This document shows, piece by piece, positions 315 through 29,181 of a stretch of DNA of 64,000 nucleotides (position 1 is the stretch's first letter; the number at the start of each line of letters is the position of its first letter). The stretch spans positions 656,344 through 720,343 of the forward strand of contig CAVOJZ010000002.1 in assembly GCA_963696395.1 (NCBI GenBank), given 5' to 3'. Source of the stretch: an uncultured bacterium. GTDB lineage: Bacteria; Patescibacteriota; Minisyncoccia; UBA6257; 2-01-FULL-56-20. The notes beneath the pieces were generated by a model that saw only the letters and a list, made by a program, of their open reading frames with translations, was not told the DNA's origin and did not search any database. The position numbers were made by a program, and so were the translations under genes.

Positions 315-596
315 TTATGGTGCGACGCTGCTTGGCGGTAGCGATGTAAAGTACCAAATAAAAAGTGCGATGAGCGTGGCAGCGATGGCTATCCAAATCA
401 AAAAGCGGCGCACGGTAATCTGCTCGGGTGCAATGCGCCCCCACCGTCCAGTATTCTCAGCTCTTTTCATGACTGTTTCATCGGGCGAAGAACGTGCTCC
501 AATAATCGCAAGGACGATGCCAAGAGCGCAGGTTACAAGCCCGAGAGCGCTAAAAGCCACATCGCTTCGCACGCCGATAAAAACGAAGATTATCAT
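315..596 (-). CDS. Small hypothetical membrane protein (93 aa, 2-3 predicted TM segments)
   Basis: The ORF has hydrophobic segments. It lies downstream of the tRNA-Gly and the long hairpin on the minus strand, with no competing credible ORF. Confidence 0.35.
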   Translation of the reverse strand: MIIFVFIGVRSDVAFSALGLVTCALGIVLAIIGARSSPDETVMKRAENTGRWGRIAPEQITVRRFLIWIAIAATLIALFIWYFTSLPPSSVAP

Positions 597-793
597 TACG
601 AGAGGCCGACGATGAGTCCAGAAAACAATCCCCGTAAAACGCCAGCGAGATTAAATGTCCTGTCGAACAATGATTGAGTACGACCCTTTGTCATATATTA
701 ATGATAACACAGAGCATGCATCCTCCCATCGGTATGAACGAAAATGTTTCCCCTCCGACCCACCCCTCTGTTCCATTCCCTTATCGGAACCAT

Positions 794-913
794 CTTTCTC
801 TTTCTTGTATTCCTTTTTGAGGACTCTCGGAAGCACGTAGGTGCTGAGAGGTGAGGTGCGTGCGCAGCAGCGCACGACACCGTGCCTCAAAAAGGAATAC
901 AAGAAAGAGAAAG
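794..913. repeat. Perfect 29-bp inverted repeat (794-822 / 885-913) enclosing a 62-nt, internally hairpin-rich spacer; abuts the tRNA-Gly 3' end
   Basis: ctttctctttcttgtattcctttttgagg is exactly reverse-complementary to cctcaaaaaggaatacaagaaagagaaag. The spacer contains nested stems (gcac/gtgc, gtgcg/cgcac, cacg/cgtg). Confidence 0.8.
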
Positions 914-987
914 TGGAGCGGGTAACGGGAATCGAACCCGTATCTCAACCTTGGGAAGGTCGCGTTCTACCACTGAACCATACCCGC
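914..987 (-). tRNA. tRNA-Gly (anticodon CCC), CCA encoded
   Basis: The reverse complement GCGGGTATGGTTCAGTGGTAGAACGCGACCTTCCCAAGGTTGAGATACGGGTTCGATTCCCGTTACCCGCTCCA folds as a cloverleaf: acceptor GCGGGTA/TACCCGC, anticodon loop TTCCCAA, T-loop GGTTCGATTCC. Confidence 0.85.
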
Positions 988-1339
988 GCGAAAACACCGC
1001 GCAGAAAAATAGTACCTTAATCTTTTTTCTTCAGCAAACTGAGGCAGAAAAATGCGGCGGCTATCATGACGACGGTGGGGCCGGGGTCGAGTCCGTACGC
1101 GTGAGCGATGAGGAATCCACCGGTCAGGCAATAAGTGCCCGTTGAAATTGTCCACCCGAGTCTATCGTTTGTTTAATAACGTACCAACGCGCCGGACTGT
1201 ACAGAATGGGTTGCATTTATAACGAATTTGTGGTAAAAATGCGCCAGTAGGTCTGTTTTTAATTGCACCTTAACAAAAGATTTTTTGGGCTCTTTTACAT
1301 TTTTACTAAAGAGTCGCAAAAAATAAATATAAGATTTTT

Positions 1340-4646: not shown

Positions 4647-7600
4647 ATGAGGTATTCGTATAAATTTTTTTTTATCACAACCGTTGCACTCTGTGGGGTT
4701 TTTATTATCAATCCAACCGCGAAAGCCGCCCTTTGGAGTGGGATCGTTGATCCTTCGAGAGCGGTTGATTGGAGCCAGGCGGGAGCCACGATTTCGATAA
4801 CCCGAACACAATGCTTCACAACGCAGTGCAATGTGGTTTCAAATGGGACCACCGTTACCGCGGCCTCGATCAACGCGGCACTTGCTTCAGCGCCCGCAAA
4901 CACTTACGTGCTCATTCCCGCCGGATCGTTCACGATGTCGGCCGGACTCAACTTCGATAACAAGAGCAATATAACATTGAGAGGTGCGGGGTCTAACGGC
5001 ACATTTTTGACATTTACCGGTTCTGGCAATGCAGGGAATTGCAACGGAAATGATGTGTGTGCTTCGAGTGCCGACACGAATTATTGGGGCGGTCCATCAA
5101 ACATAGCGACATGGAGTGGCACAAACGGCATGAACGGAAGCTATAGCAAGGGCGCCACATCGATAATATTAAATTCAGTTAACAATCTTTCTGTCGGGAT
5201 GCCGGTGGTACTTGATCAAATTGACGATCAAGCTGATAATGGCGGTCTTTATGTTGGATGTGAATACGGAAGTAGCAACAGCGGTGGAGATGTCTCGACC
5301 GCCTGTTACCCGGGCGGTTATCCAAGCGGCTTCCAGCGTGGCGAAGGTTCACTTTCCACCATCCGTGGCCAACAGCAGATTGTGAACGTCACGAGTATTT
5401 CAGGTTCCGGTCCGTACAACGTGGGAATCTCGCCCGGTATTTATGCGGACAATTTTAAAACGAGCCATTCGCCTGGCGCATGGTGGGCGACCAGTCCGAT
5501 ATATAATGATGCCGTTGAAAATATTTCACTCGATCATACGAATGGCGGAGACGGTATCGACTTCTTTAATTGCACCGGTTGCTGGGTTAAAGGTGTTCGT
5601 GGCGTTCGTGCAAGTGTCACGGGTACCGGATGGGCGAACGTCACGCTTTCGCTTTGCAACCACTGTACCGTGCGGGATTCATATTTCTATGGTTATGACG
5701 GAGATTCATACGGGATAGCGGTTGATCTTGCGAGCGACGTGCTGATTGAAAACAATATAACGCAACGGCCAGAGGTAGTATCATTCTTTAATTCGGATTG
5801 CGAGGGGTGTGTAGCCGATTACAACTTTGGCACCAATGATGTGTTCACGAATTCTTCCAATTGGCTTTCCCAAAGCAGCTACTATCATAGTGTCGATTTA
5901 TTCAGTCTTCTTGAAGGGAATATCGGATCGGGGATTTATGCGGACAGCTTTCACGGAACAAAGGGGTTGAATACGCAGTTCCGGAATCGCTTCGACGGAA
6001 GGGAGGAAAACAATGGAAACGCCACTTACTCTGGAACCGTAGCGTTGCGTCTTAATCCTGGTGCGCGTTACAACAACGCGATCGGAAACATTCTTGGCAC
6101 GCCAGGATATCACACGGTATACGAAAGCACCCCTGCGAGTTACGGTAGTCTTTACAATTCAGTTATTGACGCTGGCGCATACGGAGAAACCGGCACGATG
6201 GATGCTTTGGTTGCCCCGACTTCGATGTTTTGGGGAAACTGGGATGTCGTTTCGAATGCGAGCCGCTGGTGTGGTAATGCTTCCGACCCGGGATGGTCAA
6301 CGACGTGCGCAAGCGTTTCCGAAGTGCCAACGGGGCTGAGTAACTATGCGAACGCCGTTCCACTCACTACGACACTGCCTCCATCTTTTATCTATTCAGC
6401 GAAGCCTTCGTGGTGGCCGGCGAACAAAGCTTGGCCTCCAATTGGACCTGACGTTTCCGGCGGAAATGTAGGGCAATGCTCGGGAGGAATCTACGACAGT
6501 TCCGAGGCGATTTCTTCGGCGGAATGTTCGGGCGGGAGTTTTTCTCCTGTTGCGGGCGGGATGGTGAACAGCATCCCGGCGATGGATTGTTACTTCAATA
6601 TCATGGGAGGAGTTCCAAACGGAACCGGAAACGCCTTGTCGTTTGATCCCTCTCTCTGTTATGCCAGCGGAGGAGGCGGAGACACTCAACCCCCAACGGT
6701 TTCTATCACCAACCCAATAAATGGAGCAACAGTTTCGTCTACGGTTATTATCAGCGCGAATGCCTCCGATAACGTAGCAGTAGCTTCTGTTCAGTTTTTT
6801 GTGGATGGGGCCGCAATTGGCACGGATGGAGCGCCTCCTTATACATTTTCATGGGATTCAACGTCTGTTTCGAATGGAACCCATACGATCACAGCTAAAG
6901 CGACCGATACGTCTGGCAACGCTGCGTCTGCGTCAATCACTGTTACCGTGATGAATATCGGCAACGGTGGGGGAGGATTGGGACAAGTAATACAGACTTG
7001 CGGCAACCAGGCGTACGCAAATAAAAATGTTGCTTGCACGTTCGGAAATGCCATCCAGGCTGGAAACGTTATCGTAGTATACGGGTCGGGGAGTATCGGC
7101 TCTTCTACTGGATCGATTTCTGGGTGTGGGCTCACGTGGACCTATCTCAAGCAGGACGCCGCCACTGGATATGTCTCTGCTTACGCCCCTGTGACAAATA
7201 CGAGCGGTTGCACATTAACGATGAGCGAGAGCAACAGTCCAAGCGATGAATCATATGTGAACGCCATTGAAGTTTCGGGGATTACAACAACGGTGGACGG
7301 AAATTCTTATTCCTACAACACGAATCCCGGTCAATCGTCATATGCGACACCAGACATTATTACTACGTCTGGCAATGACTTCGTAATCGGTTCTTGGCTC
7401 GTCCTTTCGAATAATCAATATGGGAGTCCAACGGTTAACTCTCCTTTTGCTCCGTTGTCATTTTCAGCCGGGAATAATGGGCTTATCACATACGACAATC
7501 AATCCACGCCTGGATCAATATTCGCAACAATTAATACAAACAATTATAGCAACCAAGGATTGCAAACCGTCGCATTCAAAACTTCCGGCTCCGGCGGCGG

Positions 7601-8585
7601 TGGCGACACCCAGGCCCCCACGGTCTCCATCACCGCTCCCTCTTCCGGCTCCACCGTCTCAAGCACCATCTCCGTCCAGGCCTCAGCCTCAGATAATGTA
7701 GGGGTCACCGAAGTCCAGTTCCTCCTCGATGGATCAGTTTCCGCCACCGATCTCTCTTCCCCCTACACCTGGAGCTGGAACACGGCATCATCAAGCAATG
7801 GCCCCCATACCCTCAGTGCCAAAGCCTACGATGCCGCAGGGAACGTGGGTACCGCAACGAATGTCGGTATTACCGTGGCAAATACCTCAGGCACCGAGAC
7901 TTCCACCCCCAGCATTGCTTCCTTCTCCGCCAACCCCGGCACGATAGCCGGAGGACAGGCATCCACCCTCTCCTGGGTCGTATCCGGGAATCCTGCTCCT
8001 ACAATCGGCATCACTCCCGGCATCGGTCAGGTGAGTGGATCATCCGTATCCGTCTCTCCCTCAGAAACCACGGCATATACCCTCACGGCACAAAACAGTC
8101 TCGGAATCGCAACCGCACAAACGACCGTGACGGTAGAGACGAGTGGCGGCGGAGGAGGTGGTGGATCTGGAGGAGGCGGCGGAGGAGGAGGCGGCGGAGG
8201 CTCCGGCTCCGGCTCAGGTAGTAGTTCTGGCTCTGGCTCTGGCTCTTCTTCAGATTCTTCCCCCTCTGCTCTCCAGGCTCTTCTCCAATCCCTCTTGGCA
8301 GAGCTTGAGTCCTTGATCAACGAGCTCAACACCCAGCTTGTAGCCAGCTTTACCCGAAATCTCACGATCGGATCATCAGGACAAGACGTCAAAAACCTCC
8401 AGATCTTCCTGAATGACAACGGCTACACCGTATCCCTATCAGGAGCCGGATCTCCCGGACATGAAGGGACTACCTTTGGGGCAAAAACGGCACAGGCACT
8501 CATGAAATTCCAGGCGAAGCATCAACTCAAAGCCACCGGTTTCTTTGGACCGGCAACGAGGGCATTTATGGAGGGGAAGTGGTGA
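4647..8585 (+). CDS. Giant surface protein paralog (1312 aa): signal peptide, right-handed beta-helix (pectate-lyase-like) domain, Ig-like (Big) domains, Gly/Ser linker, C-terminal PG-binding module
   Basis: Signal peptide MRYSYKFFFITTVALCGVF. Beta-helix-like region with repeated G/N-rich turns. Two DTQ(A/P)PTVSIT...Ig-like domains. GGGGGSGGGG...SGSGS linker. C-terminus LNDNGY...GHEGTTFGAKTAQALMKFQ. Confidence 0.8.
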   Translation: MRYSYKFFFITTVALCGVFIINPTAKAALWSGIVDPSRAVDWSQAGATISITRTQCFTTQCNVVSNGTTVTAASINAALASAPANTYVLIPAGSFTMSAGLNFDNKSNITLRGAGSNGTFLTFTGSGNAGNCNGNDVCASSADTNYWGGPSNIATWSGTNGMNGSYSKGATSIILNSVNNLSVGMPVVLDQIDDQADNGGLYVGCEYGSSNSGGDVSTACYPGGYPSGFQRGEGSLSTIRGQQQIVNVTSISGSGPYNVGISPGIYADNFKTSHSPGAWWATSPIYNDAVENISLDHTNGGDGIDFFNCTGCWVKGVRGVRASVTGTGWANVTLSLCNHCTVRDSYFYGYDGDSYGIAVDLASDVLIENNITQRPEVVSFFNSDCEGCVADYNFGTNDVFTNSSNWLSQSSYYHSVDLFSLLEGNIGSGIYADSFHGTKGLNTQFRNRFDGREENNGNATYSGTVALRLNPGARYNNAIGNILGTPGYHTVYESTPASYGSLYNSVIDAGAYGETGTMDALVAPTSMFWGNWDVVSNASRWCGNASDPGWSTTCASVSEVPTGLSNYANAVPLTTTLPPSFIYSAKPSWWPANKAWPPIGPDVSGGNVGQCSGGIYDSSEAISSAECSGGSFSPVAGGMVNSIPAMDCYFNIMGGVPNGTGNALSFDPSLCYASGGGGDTQPPTVSITNPINGATVSSTVIISANASDNVAVASVQFFVDGAAIGTDGAPPYTFSWDSTSVSNGTHTITAKATDTSGNAASASITVTVMNIGNGGGGLGQVIQTCGNQAYANKNVACTFGNAIQAGNVIVVYGSGSIGSSTGSISGCGLTWTYLKQDAATGYVSAYAPVTNTSGCTLTMSESNSPSDESYVNAIEVSGITTTVDGNSYSYNTNPGQSSYATPDIITTSGNDFVIGSWLVLSNNQYGSPTVNSPFAPLSFSAGNNGLITYDNQSTPGSIFATINTNNYSNQGLQTVAFKTSGSGGGGDTQAPTVSITAPSSGSTVSSTISVQASASDNVGVTEVQFLLDGSVSATDLSSPYTWSWNTASSSNGPHTLSAKAYDAAGNVGTATNVGITVANTSGTETSTPSIASFSANPGTIAGGQASTLSWVVSGNPAPTIGITPGIGQVSGSSVSVSPSETTAYTLTAQNSLGIATAQTTVTVETSGGGGGGGSGGGGGGGGGGGSGSGSGSSSGSGSGSSSDSSPSALQALLQSLLAELESLINELNTQLVASFTRNLTIGSSGQDVKNLQIFLNDNGYTVSLSGAGSPGHEGTTFGAKTAQALMKFQAKHQLKATGFFGPATRAFMEGKW

Positions 8586-8632
8586 GGGAAAATGATTTGC
8601 AATTTTAACCGGTACATGATATAATATTTTTA

Positions 8633-9673
8633 ATGAAAAAGCGGTTAAAAAAGTACCTAATTCCCCATAAGGAGAACGATTATAAACCGCATTTGCTTCG
8701 CCCGAAATTTGTGGCGTTGGTTTGTCTCGTTGTTATCGTCGCTGAATCCGCGCTTCTTTTAGGGTCGCACTATCTTGTGCCCCGATCGAAGTTGTTCGGC
8801 ATTATCGTGACGAACGCATTGATCGATGAGACCAACGAGAGCAGGACGGCAAACAACCTGCCGACGCTCCACGAAAATTCATTGCTCGACGCGGCTGCGC
8901 AGGAAAAAGCCAACGATATGGCGACGAATAATTATTTTGCGCATACAAGCCCAACGGGACTCACGCCGTGGTATTGGTTCAACCAGGTCGGCTATAACTT
9001 TGCCTACGCGGGCGAAAATCTTGCCGTGAATTTTTCCGACTCGCAGGACGTGACAAACGCATGGATGAATTCGCCGGAGCATCGCGCGAATATTTTGGAT
9101 GCCAATTATAGCGACATCGGGATGGCCGCCGCGCAGGGAACCTTCCAGGGCCATCCGGCGACGTATGTCGTCGAGCTTTTCGGATCGCTTGCGCCCACGC
9201 CGGTCGCCGTGAATTCGATTCCGGGAATCGCATCGGCACAGGCGGCTCCGAAGCCTGTTGCTCCGGCCGCTCCGGCCGCAAAGCCAAAGCCAGCTTCCAA
9301 ACCGGCCCCGGCCGTCGCAAAGCCGACGTCGAGCCAGGTCTCCATTTCCATGCAGGACATCGCGACGCAAACTCCTTCGGCTACCGCGCATGCAACGAGT
9401 GTCGTGCTTGGTTTCGTTTCTTCGGATAATAATGGACCGGCGATTCGGCAGACAAACGCCATTCAGGAGGCGCTTTCGGATCCGAAGACGCTTGCCAACG
9501 ACTTTTATCTTTTCTTAATGATTCTTTTTACCGTCGCCCTTGTGCTTAATGTCTTCATTAATATCCGCATGCAATATCCCAAGCTCATTTTCGGGGGTTT
9601 GCTTGTCATCGTTGTTGCCGGGCTCGCGATACTCCTCAACCAGAGCGCCTTGGTTCACGCGGCAATCCTCTAA
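8633..9673 (+). CDS. CAP/SCP (cysteine-rich secretory protein family) domain protein with N- and C-terminal TM segments and an Ala/Pro/Lys-rich linker
   Basis: Motifs ...YFAHTSPTG...NAWMNSPEHRANIL are typical of the CAP superfamily. The start may be leaderless: TGATATAAT lies 7 nt upstream of the ATG. Confidence 0.65.
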   Translation: MKKRLKKYLIPHKENDYKPHLLRPKFVALVCLVVIVAESALLLGSHYLVPRSKLFGIIVTNALIDETNESRTANNLPTLHENSLLDAAAQEKANDMATNNYFAHTSPTGLTPWYWFNQVGYNFAYAGENLAVNFSDSQDVTNAWMNSPEHRANILDANYSDIGMAAAQGTFQGHPATYVVELFGSLAPTPVAVNSIPGIASAQAAPKPVAPAAPAAKPKPASKPAPAVAKPTSSQVSISMQDIATQTPSATAHATSVVLGFVSSDNNGPAIRQTNAIQEALSDPKTLANDFYLFLMILFTVALVLNVFINIRMQYPKLIFGGLLVIVVAGLAILLNQSALVHAAIL

Positions 9674-9714
9674 AAATTGCGAAGCACCCTCCGAAGGCAT
9701 AGAATGGTAAGCAA

Positions 9715-11418
9715 ATGCCTTCTTCGACGACAGAACTCATAAAGAGCAAGCTCGACGTTGTTGATTTTCTGCGCGGCTATTTAACGCTCACGCCGGCCGG
9801 CAGGAACTTTAAGGCGCTGTGCCCGTTCCATCACGAAAAATCGCCTTCCTTTATGGTATCGCCCGACCGGCAGTCGTGGCATTGTTTTGGCTGCAGTTTA
9901 GGCGGCGACATTTTCACTTTTATTATGCGGTATGAAAATTTGGAATTCGGTGAAGCCATGCGGATGCTTGCCGAGAAAGCCGGCGTGGAGTTGCGCCATG
10001 AGAATCCCGCAGAGTACCGCTATAGCGGATTGCTCTACGACCTGAATGAGCAGGCGAAAAATTATTATCGCAAAGCGCTCGCCGCTGCACCTGTGGCAAA
10101 AAAATATTTGGATGAGCGTGGATTAAAACCGGAGACGATTGAAACGTTTGAAATCGGCTGGGCCCCGAACGAGCCCGAAGGCCTTTCAATGTTCCTGCTT
10201 AATTCCGGCAACGCGCCGCAGGACCTTATCCAGGCCGGCCTCTCTATTAAAACCGAGCGGGGATTGATGCTCGATCGGTTCCGCGGGCGCATCATGTTCC
10301 CGATTCACAATCATCTTGGCAAGGTGGTCGGATTTACGGGACGCATCCTGCCCCAGCTCGACCGCGGCGATATGGGCAAATATGTAAACAGCCCCGAAAC
10401 CGCGATTTTCCAAAAATCAAAACTGCTCTACGGTTTTTGGAAAAGCAAAGATTCCATCCGTGAGGCGAAGACCGCAGTCCTCATGGAAGGGCAGATGGAT
10501 TTTTTAATGAGTTACCAATCGGGGCTTACGAATGTCGTTGCGAGTTCCGGAACGGCGCTCACGGGCGACCATCTGCGCGTTATTCATCGGCTCGCCGAAG
10601 AAATCGTTTTGTGTTTCGACAGTGATGTTGCCGGAGCCGACGCGGCGGAACGGGCGATTGACCTTGCCGAAGCGAACGATTTCAGCGTGAAGATTGCAAC
10701 ATTCAAAGATTTTAAAGATGCCGCCGACGCGGCGAAAGCCGATCCTGAAAATGTGAAGAAAACGATTTCCGCCGCAGTGCAGGCGCCGTTATTTTATTTT
10801 GCAAAATATTTGCCCGAAGACGTTGCGGAGCTCAAGACGCGCGAAGGCCTCCACAAACTTCGGGCCGTACTTGGCAAGCTGAAGATCATTGCAAGCCCCG
10901 TCGAACGCGGCTTTTGGTTCGCCGATCTTGCAAGGCGCACCGGCATCAACGAAAGGACGCTTCAGGAGGAAGCCGAAAAAGCTGCGGTTATGGGAATCCC
11001 CGTGAACGCCCGGAAAGAAGAGGAAGTTGCCAAGCGCCAGATTTCGCGCCAGGATCGGTTGTGCGAACAGCTGCTCGTTGCGGCATTTGCAAAAAATAAT
11101 TTTGATCTCATCGAAGATTGCGTGCCCTATTTTAAGCCGGCGCAGAAAGAGGTGTATCGCATCCTAAAGGACGGCAAGAAGCGGAGCGAGGATCCATCGC
11201 TTGATGAAGTGGTCGGGCTTGTGGTCCTCGGTGCATCAAGCGAAATGAGCGACGAGGAAATCGCCGCGCTCAAGGCTGAGCTTGCGAAAGAGTATTATAA
11301 AGACCGCCGACAGATCCTCGCGATGGCCATCAAAAATGCCGAAGCCAAGGGAAACGAGCCGGAGTTAAAAGCCGCTCTCATGGAACTGAACGACCTGCCA
11401 TTCACTCCTGAAGGGTAG
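9715..11418 (+). CDS. dnaG: DNA primase
   Basis: CHC2 zinc finger CPFHHEKSPSFMVSPDRQSWHCFGCSLGGDIFTF, TOPRIM region, and operon position before rpoD. Confidence 0.9.
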   Translation: MPSSTTELIKSKLDVVDFLRGYLTLTPAGRNFKALCPFHHEKSPSFMVSPDRQSWHCFGCSLGGDIFTFIMRYENLEFGEAMRMLAEKAGVELRHENPAEYRYSGLLYDLNEQAKNYYRKALAAAPVAKKYLDERGLKPETIETFEIGWAPNEPEGLSMFLLNSGNAPQDLIQAGLSIKTERGLMLDRFRGRIMFPIHNHLGKVVGFTGRILPQLDRGDMGKYVNSPETAIFQKSKLLYGFWKSKDSIREAKTAVLMEGQMDFLMSYQSGLTNVVASSGTALTGDHLRVIHRLAEEIVLCFDSDVAGADAAERAIDLAEANDFSVKIATFKDFKDAADAAKADPENVKKTISAAVQAPLFYFAKYLPEDVAELKTREGLHKLRAVLGKLKIIASPVERGFWFADLARRTGINERTLQEEAEKAAVMGIPVNARKEEEVAKRQISRQDRLCEQLLVAAFAKNNFDLIEDCVPYFKPAQKEVYRILKDGKKRSEDPSLDEVVGLVVLGASSEMSDEEIAALKAELAKEYYKDRRQILAMAIKNAEAKGNEPELKAALMELNDLPFTPEG

Positions 11419-22773: not shown

Positions 22774-23833
22774 GAATTCTAGTTTGAATCGCAACGACCA
22801 TTGAACACCTCTCGTGGAGTGAGATAGCCGAGCCGTTTTCTCGGACGGTCATTGAGCAGTCGGACGACTCGGTCGATATCGGATTGTTTCACGATAGCAA
22901 AATCCATACCTTTTGGAAAGAATTGCCGGAGCAGGCCGTTCCAATTCTCATTCGATCCGCGTTCCCAAGAGTGATAGGGCGTCGCGCGGTAGACGGTAAT
23001 ATCAATATCTTTTTCAAGCAAACGATCGTAATCGCCGAACTCAGGACCGTTGTCACGTGTCATGGTGTGCCGCTTTTTCTTCGGGATCTTTTTGAACCGA
23101 TCGCGCGTGATCGCATGTACGTTCTCCGCAGTGACTTTTTCGACTTTGTCCGCCGCACCAAAACCACTCGCCCGATCGACGTGGGTGAGCATCCGTTGCT
23201 TTTTGGTGCGGTCAAGAATCGTATCGCCTTCCCAGTCGCCGATTCGCCTGCGCTCCTCAACCACCGGTGGGCGTTCTTCGATTCGCCTGATTTTCAATGC
23301 GTTCCGCTTGGCTTTCCTCGTGTTCGTGCCACGCCTCCTGCGCCACTTTCCCTTTTGATACCGCAGATATTTTTTGAGGTCCGACCGGTCGCGGTATACG
23401 AACTGGTAAATCGTCTCATGGGAGACGACGGTGTGTTTCGTCATTCGCTGCAAACGTCCCGCGATCTGTTCGGGCGACCAATAGTGCTTGAGTTTTCGCA
23501 TGACATGGCGGCGGAGCGTTCGATCATGCTTCAATTTCTGCGACGGTTCTTTGGCAGCAAACCTTCGGTATTGTGTCTTGTGATGGGCGCTGCCGCCGCG
23601 ATATACGCCGTCATCATCACGGTTCCTCCTGATCTCCCGACTGATTGTACCCGGACTCTTGCCAAGCCGGTCCGCGATCCATGACTGTGTTTTGCCCACC
23701 AAGAGCAGGTGGGCTAGCGCGACACGGTCGTCGCGCGTAAAATGCGAGTGCGACATCTCCGTTATGTGGGTTTTTGGTATTCGACGTACCGATATTCTCA
23801 CCCGCGGAGATGTTGCATTTCAAGATTGAATTC
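22774..23833 (-). mobile_element. IS30-family insertion sequence (~1.06 kb) with imperfect terminal inverted repeats sharing a GAATTC core
   Basis: Contains the IS30-type transposase gene. Left end tgaattctagtttgaatcgcaacg and right end (reverse complement) cgaattcaatcttgaaatgcaaca share about 18 of 26 positions. The transposase stop codon lies inside the terminal repeat. Confidence 0.7.
22779..23801 (-). CDS. IS30-family DDE transposase (likely ATG start at 23756, MSHSHF...; the track start at 23801 is GTG)
   Basis: HTH ...SWIADRLGKSPGTISREIRRN. C-terminus ...ERGSNENWNGLLRQFFPKGMDF...LNDRPRKRLGYLTPREVF matches the IS30 transposase C-terminal signature (GTNENTNGLIRQYFPK...NNRPRK). Confidence 0.85.
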   Translation of the reverse strand: MRISVRRIPKTHITEMSHSHFTRDDRVALAHLLLVGKTQSWIADRLGKSPGTISREIRRNRDDDGVYRGGSAHHKTQYRRFAAKEPSQKLKHDRTLRRHVMRKLKHYWSPEQIAGRLQRMTKHTVVSHETIYQFVYRDRSDLKKYLRYQKGKWRRRRGTNTRKAKRNALKIRRIEERPPVVEERRRIGDWEGDTILDRTKKQRMLTHVDRASGFGAADKVEKVTAENVHAITRDRFKKIPKKKRHTMTRDNGPEFGDYDRLLEKDIDITVYRATPYHSWERGSNENWNGLLRQFFPKGMDFAIVKQSDIDRVVRLLNDRPRKRLGYLTPREVFNGRCDSN

Positions 23834-24140: not shown

Positions 24141-24389
24141 GTGATACATTGAAGTCACAACTGAATAGAAGTCGCCTAAACCTGTCAGAAATGGCGGGCA
24201 TGGCGCAAAGTCCGGTTAGACATAAAGAACCCATCATGTGGGATTGTCTAACCGGCCATATCGGGAAACCGATATGGAGGGCCAAAAACCCTCGCCTACG
24301 TGGTGGGCTTTTTATTAAAAAAGTTTTCTGCGTGGCGAGCTATATATCTTCAAGCCGGACGGAAGATATGGACGGAATCAGCCACGGTT

Positions 24390-26486
24390 ATGCCAAAAGA
24401 ACTACAAACGCAACTTTCCGATAACGAAAGACGAGACGTGATAAAGTATTTGGAAGCAGGGAAACCGCTTCCGGAAAAATATCGTTTTTTACTATTCAGT
24501 GAGGCTCAAGAGGTAGAGCTTCTTTGGAACGGTAAGACCAATGAGGTTACGAATGTCGTATTGCCGTTCCAAGTAATAGAGCAGATAGACGAACCAAGAA
24601 GCGATAAAAAGATTGGGCTGCAGGATTCTCTTTTCGATACTTCAGGCAGGCAGATAACGGGCTGGACGAATAAGCTGATCTGGGGCGATAACAAGCTTAT
24701 TCTTTCATCGCTCAATAATGGACCATTGCGAAAAGAAATAGAGGCGAATGGGGGCTTGAAATTGATTTACATCGATCCACCATTCGACGTTGGTGCCGAT
24801 TTTTCTATGGATATTAAAATCGGTGATGGCGATGATGAAGAAAGTTTTACAAAAAAACCATCAGTGATAGAAGAAATCGCTTATCGCGACACGTGGGGCA
24901 AGGGCGCTGACAGTTTTATTGCGATGGTGTATGAACGGTTAAAATTGATGCACGCCTTGTTAGCTGAAGACGGCAGTTTGTATGTTCATTGTGATTATCG
25001 TGTTAGTGGATATATGAGATTGGCTCTTGACGAAGTGTTTGGAAAAGATAACTTTAGAAATGAAATTGTATGGGGTTATAGGACGGGTGGTATCTCTAAG
25101 GAGTTTTTTGCTCGCAAACACGACATTGTGTTTTTCTATGCAAAGAATGCCGAGAAAGTAAAATTTAATACTCAATTTTATAAATCCTTCCAACAGAAAA
25201 AATATAATTTTAAAGGAGTTGAGGATTTATGGGATGAAGAAAAAGAGCAGTGGTACCATAACTCAGTTTGTCGGGACGTCTGGGAAGATGTGTTCCCAAT
25301 AGGAACCGAGAATAGCGAGCGCCTTGATTATCCGACACAAAAGCCAGTTGCGCTTCTCGACCGAATAATTAAAGCATCCTCAAATGAGGGCGACCTCATC
25401 GCCGATTTCTTCTGTGGTTCCGGGACAACACTTGCTGTTGCAGAAAAACTCGGTAGGAAATGGATTGGTTCCGATCTTGGAAAATTTGGCATTCATACGT
25501 CGCGCAAACGATTAGTCGGGACGCAGAGAGAACTCAAAAGGGAAGGCAAGAATTTTCGCGCCTTCGAGATTTTGAATGTCGGCAGATATGAAAGGGATAA
25601 TTTTCTCAAGTTGAATAACGATTTGCGTGCGGAGGAAAAAGCTAAGCAAGCAGAAAGAAAAGAGAAAGAATTCGTGCAACTAATCATTTCTGCATATAAA
25701 GCTGAACCAGTGGGGTCTTTTAAGACCCTGGTCGGGAAGAAACGCGATAGATTGGTTGCAGTTGGGCCAATCAATGCCCCGGTTTCCGAACGACTCGTTC
25801 AGCAGATCGTTGAGGAATGCGAGAAAATGAAGATAACTAAAGTGGACGTTCTGGGATTTGATTGGGAGATGGGCTTTGATCGACATGAATTCAGGGGGAG
25901 CGGCATTGATATCGCCTTTAAAGTAATTCCGAGAGAAGTGTTTGATAAGAAGGCAGTGGAAAAAGGCCAAGTCAAGTTTTACGATGTGGCATTCATTGAA
26001 GCGGAGCCGGTTATTAAAGGCAACGCCAACAATAAAGAACTTTCCATTGCACTTACAGATTTTTCCGTTTTTTATAACCAAGATGATTCCGGTGAGGTGG
26101 AGGAAGCCCTTCGACCTGGCGGCGTAAAAATTATCGTAGAAAATGGGCAGGTAGTGAAAATGTCAAAAGACAAAGCGACCGAACTCATTGAAAAGGAGAT
26201 ACTGACGAAGAAGTGGAGTGATTGGATTGACTATTGGGCAGTTGATTTTGATTTTTCGAGCCGAAAGGAGATTGTCAAAGTAATGGAAGGGGGCAAAGAG
26301 AATGAGGTCTGGACGGGGGATTACATTTTTGATAACGAATGGCAAAGCTTCCGGACAAAGAAGAACAGGAACCTTGAATTGACCTCCGCGCCCAAGGTAG
26401 TGCGAAAGGGGACGTATAAAGTCGCGGTTAAAGTCGTAGACATTTTCGGGAACGATACGACAAAGGTAATCGAGGTAAAAATATAA
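24390..26486 (+). CDS. mod: Type III restriction-modification DNA methyltransferase (Mod; beta-class N6A/N4C MTase); alternative GTG start at 24300
   Basis: ...[13 protein letters not shown]...[14 protein letters not shown] (motif IV DPPF) precedes motif [26 protein letters not shown]. The length and a C-terminal target-recognition-like region fit Mod. It is immediately followed by res. Confidence 0.8.
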
Positions 26487-26487
26487 T

Positions 26488-29181
26488 ATGGCCCTACCTA
26501 AAGATTTTCCCAAAGATCCCTATGCCATATTAGATCCGAGCATTCGATGGTTTCCTGCCGATGAAGATTTGCGCGAAAAAGGGTACGACAAACTTCTGCC
26601 TCCACTTGTCGCTGAATTACGCAAGAGAGTAAAGAAGTGGCGAGACGATCACTATGAAGGTGCAAGTGAAACCTCGCGAGCGCTTTTGAACTGGTGGTTT
26701 AATGAGGATCATATTTTGTACGACGAATATGGCGCATCGTCTCAGTTTAGATATTATTTTGCCCAAAGGGAGGCGTTAGAGACGGTTATCTGGTTATATG
26801 AGGTCGCAAAGGTCAAAGATAAGTACGACCTCATTCGATATAATTCGACCGGCGTGCTGAGTGCGGGGATGTTCACTGAAGACTGGTTGCGTTTTGTAAT
26901 CAAGATGGCAACGGGGTCGGGCAAAACCAAGGTGATGAGCCTTGTGGTGGCATGGGCATATTTCCATAAAAAATACGAATCAGATTCCAAATTGGCAAAG
27001 AATTTTCTCTTAATAACTCCTAATGTCATCGTCTTCGAAAGAATAAAGAACGATTTTGAGGGGTTGAAGATATTCTTTAGCGATCCCGTGTTACCGGAAA
27101 ATGGATATGAGGGTCAAAACTGGCAGGATGATTTTCAGATGACGCTTCACTTACAAGACGACTTGCGGAACGTCTCTGAAACGGGAAACATATTTCTAAC
27201 GAATATCCACCGAGTATATGAAAATGACGTAAGGGAAGCGAGTCCGGACGACGAGGATGCTTCTGCGTATTTCTTGGGCGAGAAGCCTGTTACGAAAACA
27301 AACGATTCTACGGTCGATTTAGGGATGATCGTCAGAGATATCGATGAGCTGATTGTCATCAACGATGAAGCGCATCATATACACGATGAAAAGATGGCGT
27401 GGTTCAAGTCGATTTTGGATATCGATAACAAATTGAAGCAAAAGGGGTCGGGTTTGGCTTTGCAGCTGGACGTGACAGCAACGCCAAAGAAAAGTGACGG
27501 GTCTATTTTTGTGCAAACCATTTCCGACTATCCACTTGTCGAAGCCATATACCAGAGAATCGTAAAAAATCCCGTTGTGCCGGATGCGGCGAGTAGGGGA
27601 AAACTGAAAGAAAATCAAAGTGCTTTGTTCAGTGAAAAATACAGGGATTACATAAACCTTGGCATTGAAGAATGGCGAAAAACGTACGAGACGCTCAAGC
27701 CCATGGGCAAGAAATCAATTCTTTTCATCATGACCGATGACACGAAGAACTGCGATGAGGTTGCTGAATATATCGAAACGAGCTACGCAGACTTGAAAGG
27801 GGCCGTCTTAACTATTCATACCAATAAGAGCGGTGAAATCTCGGAGAATGTTACCGGCAAGAACAAGGATGAATTGGATTTGCTGAGGAAACAGGCGAAC
27901 GATATAGATAGCTTGGAAAGCCGGTTTAAAGTAATCGTGTCGGTTATGATGCTCAAAGAAGGATGGGATGTCAAAAACGTCACCACAATCGTCGGGCTGA
28001 GGCCGTTTGCGGCAGATTCAAAGATATTGCCCGAACAAACCCTGGGGCGGGGTCTCCGAAGGATGTTCTTCGGCAGGGATGACGTTGAAGAATATGTGAG
28101 CGTCGTAGGCACACCGATGTTTATGGATTTCGTCGAATCCATCAAGGGCGAAGGTGTGATCCTTGAAAGGAAAGCGATGGGGAGTGGGTCAAAACCGATT
28201 ACGCCGATGGTCGTTGAAGTGGACAGGGAGAATCCCAAGAAAGATATTGAAAAGTTGGACATTGAAATACCGGTGATGTCTCCCAGGATACAAAGGGAGT
28301 ACAAGAATTTGGCGGAGTTAGATGTTTCCACTTTTGGGAATAAGAAGGTTAAAGTGAAAACTTTCTCCGAAGAGGAGAAAAGAGAAATAGTGTTCAAAGA
28401 CGTCGTCGATGAAAAGACGCATCATACGACCATATTGACCGGGGATATCGAGCCGGATTATCAAAGCGTTATCGGTTTTTTTGCTCAATCGGTGATGAGG
28501 GACCTTCGGCTGTTCGGCTGCTACGATATTTTATTCGGCAAGGTGAAGGAATTCGTGCAGCATCACCTGTTTGATAAGCCGGTGGATTTGTCGGATCTGA
28601 ATGTCTTGAGGAATTTATCGGAGATCGAATACATACGACTAATCAAAGAGTCCTTCAAAAAAGCCATCAACGAACTCACGGTGCAGGATAAAGGCGATGC
28701 CGAAATCAAGAACTATATTAAAATCAGTGAAGCGCGGCCATTCGTCGTCAATGATAAGTCCTACTTAATCCCTAAAAAATCAGTTTTCAATAGGATTGTC
28801 GGCGACAGCGATTTTGAACTCGTCTTCTCGGAGTTTATCGATAGGTGCGACGACATCATTTCTTTCTCAAAGAATTTTCAAAATAAGGAGACGAATGCTT
28901 TGAGGATTGAATATAAAAATTCGGAAGGTGTCATCGCTATGTACTATCCCGATTTCTTCGTTAAGAAAGATGATCGGACGGTCTATATTATTGAGACCAA
29001 GGGGAGAGAGGAGGAAGACGATAAATTGAAATTTGAACGATTACAAAAATGGTGCGAAGATGTTAATGAGAGACAGAGCAGAATGATGTATAAAGCTTTA
29101 TATATTAAGCAGGAGGAGTGGCAAAAAGAACGACTCAAGAATTTCGATGAGGTTATAAGGATGTTTGATAAAGAAAAATAG
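26488..29181 (+). CDS. res: Type III restriction enzyme Res subunit (SF2 helicase + C-terminal PD-(D/E)xK nuclease)
   Basis: Walker A IKMATGSGKTKVMS, DEAH-like VINDEAHHI, helicase motifs, and C-terminal YYPDFFV...IIETKG. The ATG is 1 nt after the mod stop, indicating translational coupling. Confidence 0.8.
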   Translation: MALPKDFPKDPYAILDPSIRWFPADEDLREKGYDKLLPPLVAELRKRVKKWRDDHYEGASETSRALLNWWFNEDHILYDEYGASSQFRYYFAQREALETVIWLYEVAKVKDKYDLIRYNSTGVLSAGMFTEDWLRFVIKMATGSGKTKVMSLVVAWAYFHKKYESDSKLAKNFLLITPNVIVFERIKNDFEGLKIFFSDPVLPENGYEGQNWQDDFQMTLHLQDDLRNVSETGNIFLTNIHRVYENDVREASPDDEDASAYFLGEKPVTKTNDSTVDLGMIVRDIDELIVINDEAHHIHDEKMAWFKSILDIDNKLKQKGSGLALQLDVTATPKKSDGSIFVQTISDYPLVEAIYQRIVKNPVVPDAASRGKLKENQSALFSEKYRDYINLGIEEWRKTYETLKPMGKKSILFIMTDDTKNCDEVAEYIETSYADLKGAVLTIHTNKSGEISENVTGKNKDELDLLRKQANDIDSLESRFKVIVSVMMLKEGWDVKNVTTIVGLRPFAADSKILPEQTLGRGLRRMFFGRDDVEEYVSVVGTPMFMDFVESIKGEGVILERKAMGSGSKPITPMVVEVDRENPKKDIEKLDIEIPVMSPRIQREYKNLAELDVSTFGNKKVKVKTFSEEEKREIVFKDVVDEKTHHTTILTGDIEPDYQSVIGFFAQSVMRDLRLFGCYDILFGKVKEFVQHHLFDKPVDLSDLNVLRNLSEIEYIRLIKESFKKAINELTVQDKGDAEIKNYIKISEARPFVVNDKSYLIPKKSVFNRIVGDSDFELVFSEFIDRCDDIISFSKNFQNKETNALRIEYKNSEGVIAMYYPDFFVKKDDRTVYIIETKGREEEDDKLKFERLQKWCEDVNERQSRMMYKALYIKQEEWQKERLKNFDEVIRMFDKEK

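Follow-up and report, generated by a model that had tools for sequence, protein, structure and literature searches.

The perfect inverted repeat that abuts tRNA-Gly(CCC) in the 64-kb stretch of DNA analyzed here (hereafter the window) is one copy of a dispersed family of small (∼120–180 bp), palindromic, structured elements in Candidatus Paceibacterota (Parcubacteria, Patescibacteria), the group in which the organism is placed by loci based on lepA. Each copy of the family is built in three layers, namely a GC-rich core of two hairpins, an inner stem that is common to the whole family, and an outer stem whose sequence is specific to the locus. The family is apparently undescribed: we found no description of such elements in Paceibacterota in the literature, which is not proof of absence.

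The Inverted Repeat beside tRNA-Gly(CCC)

A repeat search of the window identified two arms, at positions 794–822 and 885–913, that are complementary at 29 of 29 positions and enclose a spacer of 62 nt. This is by far the longest of the close inverted repeats in the window, and the chance expectation for a 29-mer, with three mismatches tolerated, is 0 (100 dinucleotide shuffles). The neighboring tRNA-Gly(CCC) gene lies at 914–987 on the minus strand with its CCA encoded at 916–914 (ARAGORN and Rfam), and the right arm begins at the base that directly follows the 3′ end of the tRNA, the gap being 0 nt. The preliminary description of this DNA, which reported a perfect 29-bp repeat with a 62-nt spacer in contact with the tRNA, is thus borne out, and its view of the repeat as nonrandom, distinct from an ordinary terminator, and possibly a structured or mobility-linked element was right in outline. 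The stem can be extended beyond the repeat, in that TGG at 914–916 pairs with CCA at 790–792 with a one-base bulge between. An independent short-read assembly (L002) has the identical sequence, and so, homopolymer errors aside, does a long-read assembly (L001), which excludes an assembly artifact.

The spacer had been described as containing three or four small hairpins, but folding gives two, at 824–850 and 855–881, which form a three-way junction with the long stem. On either strand, the folding energy of the element is about −80 to −83 kcal/mol (z = −10.6 to −13). The stem of this copy is 29 bp long and AT-rich, and a comparison of arms across the family divides its left arm into an inner ∼15 nt (TATTCCTTTTTGAGG) that are common to the family and an outer ∼14 nt that are locus-specific. 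Between the arms lies the conserved GC-rich core of 62 nt (823–884), for which the plus strand of the window is taken as the forward orientation. The core consists of a junction A, hairpin A, a purine linker GUGA, hairpin B, and a junction GUG. Read on the plus strand, hairpin A (824–850) is composed of CUCUC, a GGA bulge, AGCAC, a GUAG loop, GUGCU, and GAGAG, and hairpin B (855–881) is composed of GGUG-CGUGCGC, an AGCA loop, GCGCACG, an A bulge, and CACC.

In the window, the 29-mer occurs as these two arms and nowhere else, and the window holds a single copy of the family. In JGI metagenome contigs and IMG/VR, an exact 21-mer of the arm was matched by chance only, one arm at a time and within unrelated coding sequence. 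The arm sequence is not a multi-copy repeat in these metagenome and viral collections. A 20-mer from the core gave one chance match in IMG/VR, in a high-GC coding region, and blastn of the element against phage and plasmid collections returned nothing. At the Rfam gathering threshold, the window gives only tRNA and LOOT, and at E values up to 10 the only models that the element matches are microRNA precursors, to which any long hairpin bears a generic likeness, with scores far below the threshold.

A Conserved Core on Locus-Specific Stems

Copies of the family were gathered from ∼1.13 Mb of related Paceibacterota DNA by blastn and nhmmer searches, by scanning for perfect inverted repeats, and with a covariance model. 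When positions 780–920 were compared with the loci of relatives by blastn, the spacer matched an intergenic site in L020 that has no tRNA nearby and at which a stem of ∼33 bp of other sequence carries a similar core with compensatory changes. The covariance model (R1) gave 11 matches in the 1.13 Mb, two of which (L025 and L108) are the same sequence, and the window core scores 88.4 bits against it (E = 9e-28). Altogether, the family comprises 10 distinct copies in nine genomes, that is, the window copy and nine further copies in eight other genomes (L020a, L021, L034a, L034b, L097, L101 [= L102], L104, L025 [= L108], and L074). The copy in L025/L108 is a variant with a longer hairpin A, the copy in L074 comes from Harrisonbacteria, and an additional variant copy, L020b, was found by the repeat scan and missed by the covariance model. 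These loci are of five or more kinds, and most have no adjacent tRNA. At 10 distinct copies, the sample is small.

In the model alignment, 93.4% of the cells are paired, compared with 66.8% in shuffles, and two-sided changes are seen in 18 of the 25 pairs. These changes affect both hairpins, with 6 of 8 pairs in hairpin A (helices 2 and 3) and 9 of 10 pairs in hairpin B (helices 4 and 5). The covariation score is 0.692 against 0.197 in shuffles, none of 500 shuffles reaches the observed values, and controls in which the alignment was slid are only 37–64% paired with a covariation score of at most 0.23. The base pairs of the core are supported by compensatory changes in excess of these controls, as would be expected of a conserved structured RNA motif. 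The conserved unpaired features, as read on the plus strand of the window, are a GGA bulge, a GNAG loop, a C-AGCA-G loop, a purine bulge, and a GUA junction. The GGA bulge and the GNAG loop of hairpin A are conserved family-wide, and each of the eight standard-core copies has the C-AGCA-G loop in hairpin B, another loop being found in the variant cores of L025/L108 and L074.

Beneath the core, the inner ∼15 bp of the stem are conserved family-wide (about TATTnTTTTGAGG paired with CCUCAAAAnAATA). The outer stems, at 21–40 bp, are perfect or nearly so and have a different sequence at every locus. G-U pairs are nearly absent from the stems overall and are evenly distributed between the two strands (17 vs. 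15). Of the 11 element sequences that were folded, nine fold more stably as the forward strand. Copies within one genome are diverged from each other, as seen for L034a and L034b and for L020a and L020b.

Position at Gene Ends and Relationship to Terminators

The copies sit at the 3′ ends of genes, which is the usual place of terminator hairpins. Outside of tRNA sites, they are found after lepA, between convergent genes, and at other positions. Five copies abut or overlap the end of an upstream protein-coding gene, with gaps of −18 to +4 nt, and together with the window copy at its tRNA these six gene-abutting copies have one orientation relative to the gene. The copies in L021 and L074, which lie 119 and 28 nt from the upstream gene, respectively, have the opposite orientation to the other six.

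A comparison of the lepA terminator among relatives is informative in this regard. In L015 and L035, this terminator is a plain hairpin, CACAAGACGG-CACG-CCGTCTTGTG, followed by GTTTCTTTTT (a U-tract). L025/L108 have this outer stem and U-tract as well, but with AGTAAGGGTTTT-core-AAAACCCTTACT in the loop. Given that the terminator is empty in the former and filled in the latter, the element can be seated at the tip of an intrinsic terminator that was there before it.

Many relatives share the gene order lepA–divIC–...–tRNA-Gly(CCC), with the orientation of the tRNA varying. In many of them, tRNA-Gly(CCC) is directly followed by a hairpin, often of the classic bidirectional terminator type that has both an A-tract and a T-tract, and in L026, L042, and L049 a perfect stem of 26–28 bp of unrelated sequence stands right after the tRNA. 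In the window, the element stands where a terminator would follow tRNA-Gly(CCC), with the tRNA on one side and, on the other, the relic of a convergent element, X, which is treated below.

A U-rich tract follows the stem in only 2 of the 10 copies. At the window copy there are 2–3 T in the 10 nt past the stem in either direction, and a stem that lacks a U-tract in this way does not on its own make a classical intrinsic terminator. A terminator scan gave no match at 794–913, and with a 29-bp AT-rich stem as well, a canonical intrinsic terminator is ruled out for the window copy. The sole terminator-like site that the scan gave in 200–1400 is a canonical terminator at 274–252 on the minus strand, where it follows an orphan ORF (315–596, minus strand) that encodes a predicted membrane protein of 93 aa. 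The suggestion that the repeat is an attenuator for this ORF found no support, as the ORF is an orphan that lies 197 nt off and no such gene is found at the other copies. Among 5.8 billion proteins, the 93-aa product has no homolog but itself, and the ORF may not be a real gene.

Origin and Concerted Evolution of the Arms

As judged from comparison with relatives, the outer arms are built from neighboring sequence, and the gene-distal arm can be an inverted copy of a coding end. In L034b, the gene-proximal arm includes the last 17 nt of lepA, where the coding sequence is conserved in relatives, and the distal arm is an inverted copy of this lepA end. The L034a copy is located between two convergent genes that in relatives overlap by about 10 nt and have no spacer, and the final 18 nt of the left gene's coding sequence recur in inverted form as its distal arm. 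Because the genes overlap at the corresponding site in relatives, the distal arm of L034a was newly made. In L034a as in L034b, the stop codon and the coding end before it both lie within the stem.

The window copy and those of L101, L097, and L104 are orthologs that share the arrangement X–element–tRNA or pseudo-tRNA. The window and L101 are 71% identical in their arms and 68% identical in their cores, yet the arms pair at 29 of 29 positions in the window, at 31 of 31 positions in L097, and throughout, save for a 3-nt slip, in L101. Given that the arms are ∼30% diverged between orthologs and are nevertheless self-complementary, the two arms of a copy evolve in concert. Independent drift would leave several mismatches per stem, and we therefore infer that the arms undergo homogenization and extension. 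Intrastrand template switching, that is, correction and extension of the palindrome, would both homogenize and lengthen the arms. The hairpin stems in the cores of orthologous copies differ by compensatory changes; as these cores keep their structure in this manner, selection appears to act on the resident copies, which argues against pure junk.

Integration at the tRNA-Gly(CCC) Site

Element X is ∼160 nt long, forms four hairpins, and always lies beside tRNA-Gly(CCC) or a fragment of the tRNA. Its closing helix is GGGAATC/GATTCCC, the outer strand of which is the displaced 3′ end of tRNA-Gly and therefore constitutes a direct repeat. X is intact in L097 (12078–12238), L101 (4858–5022), L026 (6362–6512, minus strand), and L062 (10499–10640, minus strand), and in relatives it adjoins either the repeat element or the terminator hairpin of tRNA-Gly. 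Comparison with these relatives indicates that the window keeps only the 3′ third of X, as a relic at 737–793 on the plus strand. Among the four sequences, 7 of 35 predicted pairs of X covary, and X has no match in Rfam at gathering or relaxed thresholds.

The direct repeats of the tRNA 3′ end in relatives surround X and not the repeat element. Directly beyond the element copy in L101, the region 5511–11295 contains a Replic_Relax gene and two genes for TraG/VirD4-like coupling proteins; DivIC is 88% identical in L101, and the contig has no intact tRNA-Gly. This region is probably a conjugative or mobilizable element integrated at tRNA-Gly(CCC). In L097, 2 kb separate the element copy from the intact tRNA. 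Based on the displaced tRNA 3′ ends, the mobility genes of L101, and the 2-kb cargo of L097, the tRNA-Gly(CCC) site is an integration hot spot in relatives. The idea that the 3′ end of this tRNA serves as an integration target is therefore partly borne out, for the site in relatives, but as a scar the inverted repeat itself finds no support.

Two further features of this site were noted. The tRNA-Gly(CCC) of the window encodes its CCA (914–916), and the 96–97% identical tRNAs of L018, L021, L022, and L023 do not. In L026, tRNA-Gly is followed at 6279–6358 by a 26-bp perfect hairpin in which the inner stem ends with CATATTTT and the loop contains CGGAGCC. It resembles the inner stem of the family plus the 5′ half of hairpin A and may be a derivative from which most of the core has been deleted.

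Possible Function and Alternative Explanations

We favor the hypothesis that the likeliest role of the element is that of an orientation-tolerant RNA 3′-end or insulator hairpin, to which we assign a probability of about 0.5. A transcript entering from either side would fold into a very stable three-way-junction hairpin (about −80 kcal/mol), and this hairpin would define or protect RNA 3′ ends. In the window, its effect would be to shield the tRNA from transcription that converges on it or reads through, and a host factor would bind at the conserved purine bulges and loops. The genomes of candidate phyla radiation bacteria are tiny, their intergenic regions are very short, and a multi-copy noncoding structure under clear structural selection is therefore unlikely to be junk. 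Several points stand against a 3′-end role. U-rich tails are confined to the two copies mentioned above, the G-U pairs show no strand signal (17 vs. 15), and the near-absence of such pairs fits constraint or correction at the DNA level better than plain selection at the RNA level. Perfect duplex stems of 25–40 bp are, moreover, ideal substrates for RNase III, and cutting at L034a or L034b, with the stop codon and coding end in the stem, would damage the mRNA.

A DNA-level constraint would be expected if the family were instead a selfish mobile element that acts as single-stranded or cruciform DNA and has no host function, which is the main rival explanation and which we regard as possible but doubtful. 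Under this hypothesis, a transposase or HUH-type nuclease from another locus would recognize the two-hairpin core, insertion would take place into single-stranded hairpin loops such as those of terminators, and the long perfect arms would be by-products of hairpin-primed copying. Consistent with this, the element is found at many unrelated loci, the lepA terminator loop contains the element in one species but not in two others, the arms are almost wholly Watson–Crick with G-U pairs that have no strand bias, and they contain inverted copies of flanking coding sequence. Furthermore, all six gene-abutting copies are co-oriented with the gene, as strand-specific insertion of ssDNA would yield, and the Replic_Relax gene of L101 is 364 nt from the copy there. 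However, no gene for a transposase or HUH nuclease is consistently near the copies, the ends of the IS30-like gene in the window are unrelated, target-site duplications are absent, and the terminal sequence that the copies have in common is the inner stem only. Copies in the same genome (L034a vs. L034b, L020a vs. L020b) are diverged, and compensatory changes in place imply that selection acts on resident copies and not solely on a mobile master copy. With one copy in the 64-kb window and no near-identical pair within a genome, recent mobility appears unsupported. In another alternative, the core would be a multi-copy small RNA gene of about 65–100 nt with the long stem as its RNase III processing stalk. 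A small structured noncoding RNA or a processing structure would fit the strong covariation in both hairpins best, the conserved unpaired bases of the forward strand are purine-rich (the GGA bulge, the GNAG and AGCA loops, the A bulge, and the GUA junction) as is typical of functional RNAs, the forward strand is the more stable one in 9 of 11 sequences, and the perfect stems of 25–40 bp suit RNase III. We nonetheless consider such a gene improbable, because a promoter-like site is absent near the window copy, the orientation relative to neighboring genes varies, the stems overlap coding ends that cleavage would destroy, and no Rfam family matches. More broadly, the family might represent a novel type of bacterial element in which the branched core nucleates the outward growth of perfect palindromes, with adjacent DNA and even coding ends as the template, and which spreads into the loops of other hairpins; or else the core might be a multi-copy small RNA released from stalks. 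We view this broader proposal as unlikely.

Two explanations based on site-specific recombination also need to be weighed. The preliminary description raised the possibility that the repeat is the scar or attachment site of an element that integrated into, or was excised from, the 3′ end of tRNA-Gly. The element does touch this 3′ end, a direct repeat of it bounds the adjacent X in relatives, the L101 copy lies beside Replic_Relax and TraG/VirD4-like genes on a contig that lacks an intact tRNA, and cargo is found between copy and intact tRNA in L097. On the other hand, the majority of family members are located away from tRNAs, with homologous elements after lepA and between convergent genes, and integration gives direct, not inverted, repeats. 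The window contains no second tRNA fragment, an integrase gene is missing from the vicinity of the element, selection acts on the structure of the core, and phage, plasmid, and viral collections gave chance matches only for the element or its arm. We therefore judge a scar to be very unlikely, and for the repeat itself this reading is already largely refuted; a tRNA-targeted attL/attR pair was likewise rejected, as the window has no second tRNA 3′ end and there is 0 nt of cargo between the tRNA and the element. A short segment flanked by perfect inverted repeats is also what one would see in an invertible switch, in which a site-specific invertase would flip the 62-bp segment between the 29-bp repeats. 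This hardly deserves credence: the core has one orientation in three of three independent assemblies of the organism and within each orthologous set (window/L101/L097/L104, L020a/L034a, and L034b/L108), so an inverton was rejected, 62 bp is very short for invertase looping, and the core has hairpin covariation rather than promoter features.

Comparison with Known Elements

The family is best classed with the small palindromic intergenic elements of bacteria, among which it stands out by combining a conserved apex with perfect arms that are particular to each locus. Correia/CREE elements of Neisseria, ERIC/IRU elements of enterobacteria, RPE elements of Rickettsia, and RUP/BOX elements of pneumococcus are likewise 100–180 bp in length, dispersed, noncoding, and located at gene ends, and they too form a long hairpin in transcripts of either strand, with a presumed role in termination or in RNA stability or processing. 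In those families the whole element is conserved, including the terminal inverted repeats, and many have target-site duplications. In contrast, conservation in the present family is limited to the apical core and ∼15 bp of the inner stem, its outer 10–27 bp are locus-specific, copied from the flank, and kept perfectly paired, and no target-site duplication is seen. REP/BIME sequences, which are associated with RAYT transposases, are similar in being structured extragenic palindromes at gene 3′ ends that are recognized as hairpins and tolerate compensatory changes. REPs are, however, single hairpins of 20–40 bp that have a conserved tag (GTAG or CGTC) on one side and are often clustered, whereas the family described here forms a three-way junction on a stem of 25–40 bp, occurs as single copies, and has no RAYT gene that we could see.

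Bidirectional Rho-independent terminators occupy the same position after a stop codon or tRNA end, and the L108 element is nested in one, but the stem of the family is three to four times longer, its branched apex is conserved, and most copies lack a U-tract. The RNase III stalks that flank 16S and 23S rRNA are a further parallel, as they too are long, near-perfect duplexes formed from distant flanks around a conserved structured RNA; the RNA enclosed here would be only about 62–90 nt, and the stems may include the coding ends of mRNAs. Correction of quasipalindromes by template switching, as in the Ripley/Lovett model, would explain the perfect arms, their concerted evolution, and the inverted coding copies. 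That model describes a mutational mechanism at short quasipalindromes of Escherichia coli and is not known as the routine mode of an element family.

Other classes of element were also considered. The dispersal of 10 distinct copies and the presence/absence variation at the lepA terminator, filled in some genomes and empty in others, are features of a MITE. A classical MITE was rejected given that the outer arms are unrelated between loci and only the inner ∼15 bp are common to the copies, and no flanking direct repeat that could be a target-site duplication is present at the window (AACCAT/TGGAGC), L020a, L034a, L034b, or L097. The element is also not a MITE of the IS30-like element at 22779–23801, with which it has no sequence in common. 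The attC site of integrons is an imperfect palindrome with conserved R and L boxes at its ends, extrahelical bases, a variable center, and an adjacent cassette array. The architecture of the present element is the reverse, with a conserved center, variable perfect ends, and no extrahelical bases in the stem, and there is neither a cassette array nor an integrase near it. The hammerhead ribozyme core (CUGAUGA, GAAA), compared by eye in both orientations, does not match. A retron, with its a1/a2 repeats flanking msr-msd, was rejected because no reverse transcriptase gene is nearby and the spacer is too short. Patescibacteria have been reported to carry a group I intron within a tRNA (PMC13011429); the tRNA-Gly of the window is intact, and neither the element nor X matches intron models, so this identity was rejected as well.

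The family provides a new candidate RNA or DNA motif for uncultured Paceibacterota and marks the ends of transcription units in genomes that are hard to annotate. It offers a case in which the arm of a long palindrome was made from neighboring coding sequence and then kept perfect, a process that is usually discussed for short quasipalindromes only, and the surrounding locus flags tRNA-Gly(CCC) as an integration hot spot of the lineage. If the proposal of palindrome growth or of a small RNA released from stalks were true, it would add a type of structured noncoding element that is specific to genome-reduced CPR bacteria, and it would be a case from nature in which templated palindrome extension operates routinely in evolution.

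Additional Observations

Elsewhere in the window, a LOOT RNA (RF03000, 89.9 bits) is located at 24173–24293 on the plus strand, 7 nt upstream of a type III restriction-modification pair that consists of N6_N4_Mtase followed by ResIII (ORFs 24300–26486 and 26488–29181). The LOOT RNA and this pair lie within an island at 24–30 kb that has a low GC content (0.44) and a strong skew of G over C, and the IS30-like transposase gene (HTH_38 + rve; 22779–23801, minus strand) adjoins it. Just upstream of a gene for a 1067-aa surface protein, a stretch of ∼75 nt (1259–1335) is 73–84% identical to sequences elsewhere in L049, L022, L042, L026, L033, and L025, and may be a common promoter or 5′ leader of surface-protein genes. 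The repeat scan also returned other long perfect inverted repeats of 18–22 bp, with spacers of 17–134 nt of different sequence, in L015 (12078–12134), L035 (3763–3923), L024 (315–486), L088 (10854–10957), and L053 (5546–5687). The arms of the L015 and L035 repeats have the same start, GAACCCATCT, and these five repeats suggest that there are further families of the same general design.
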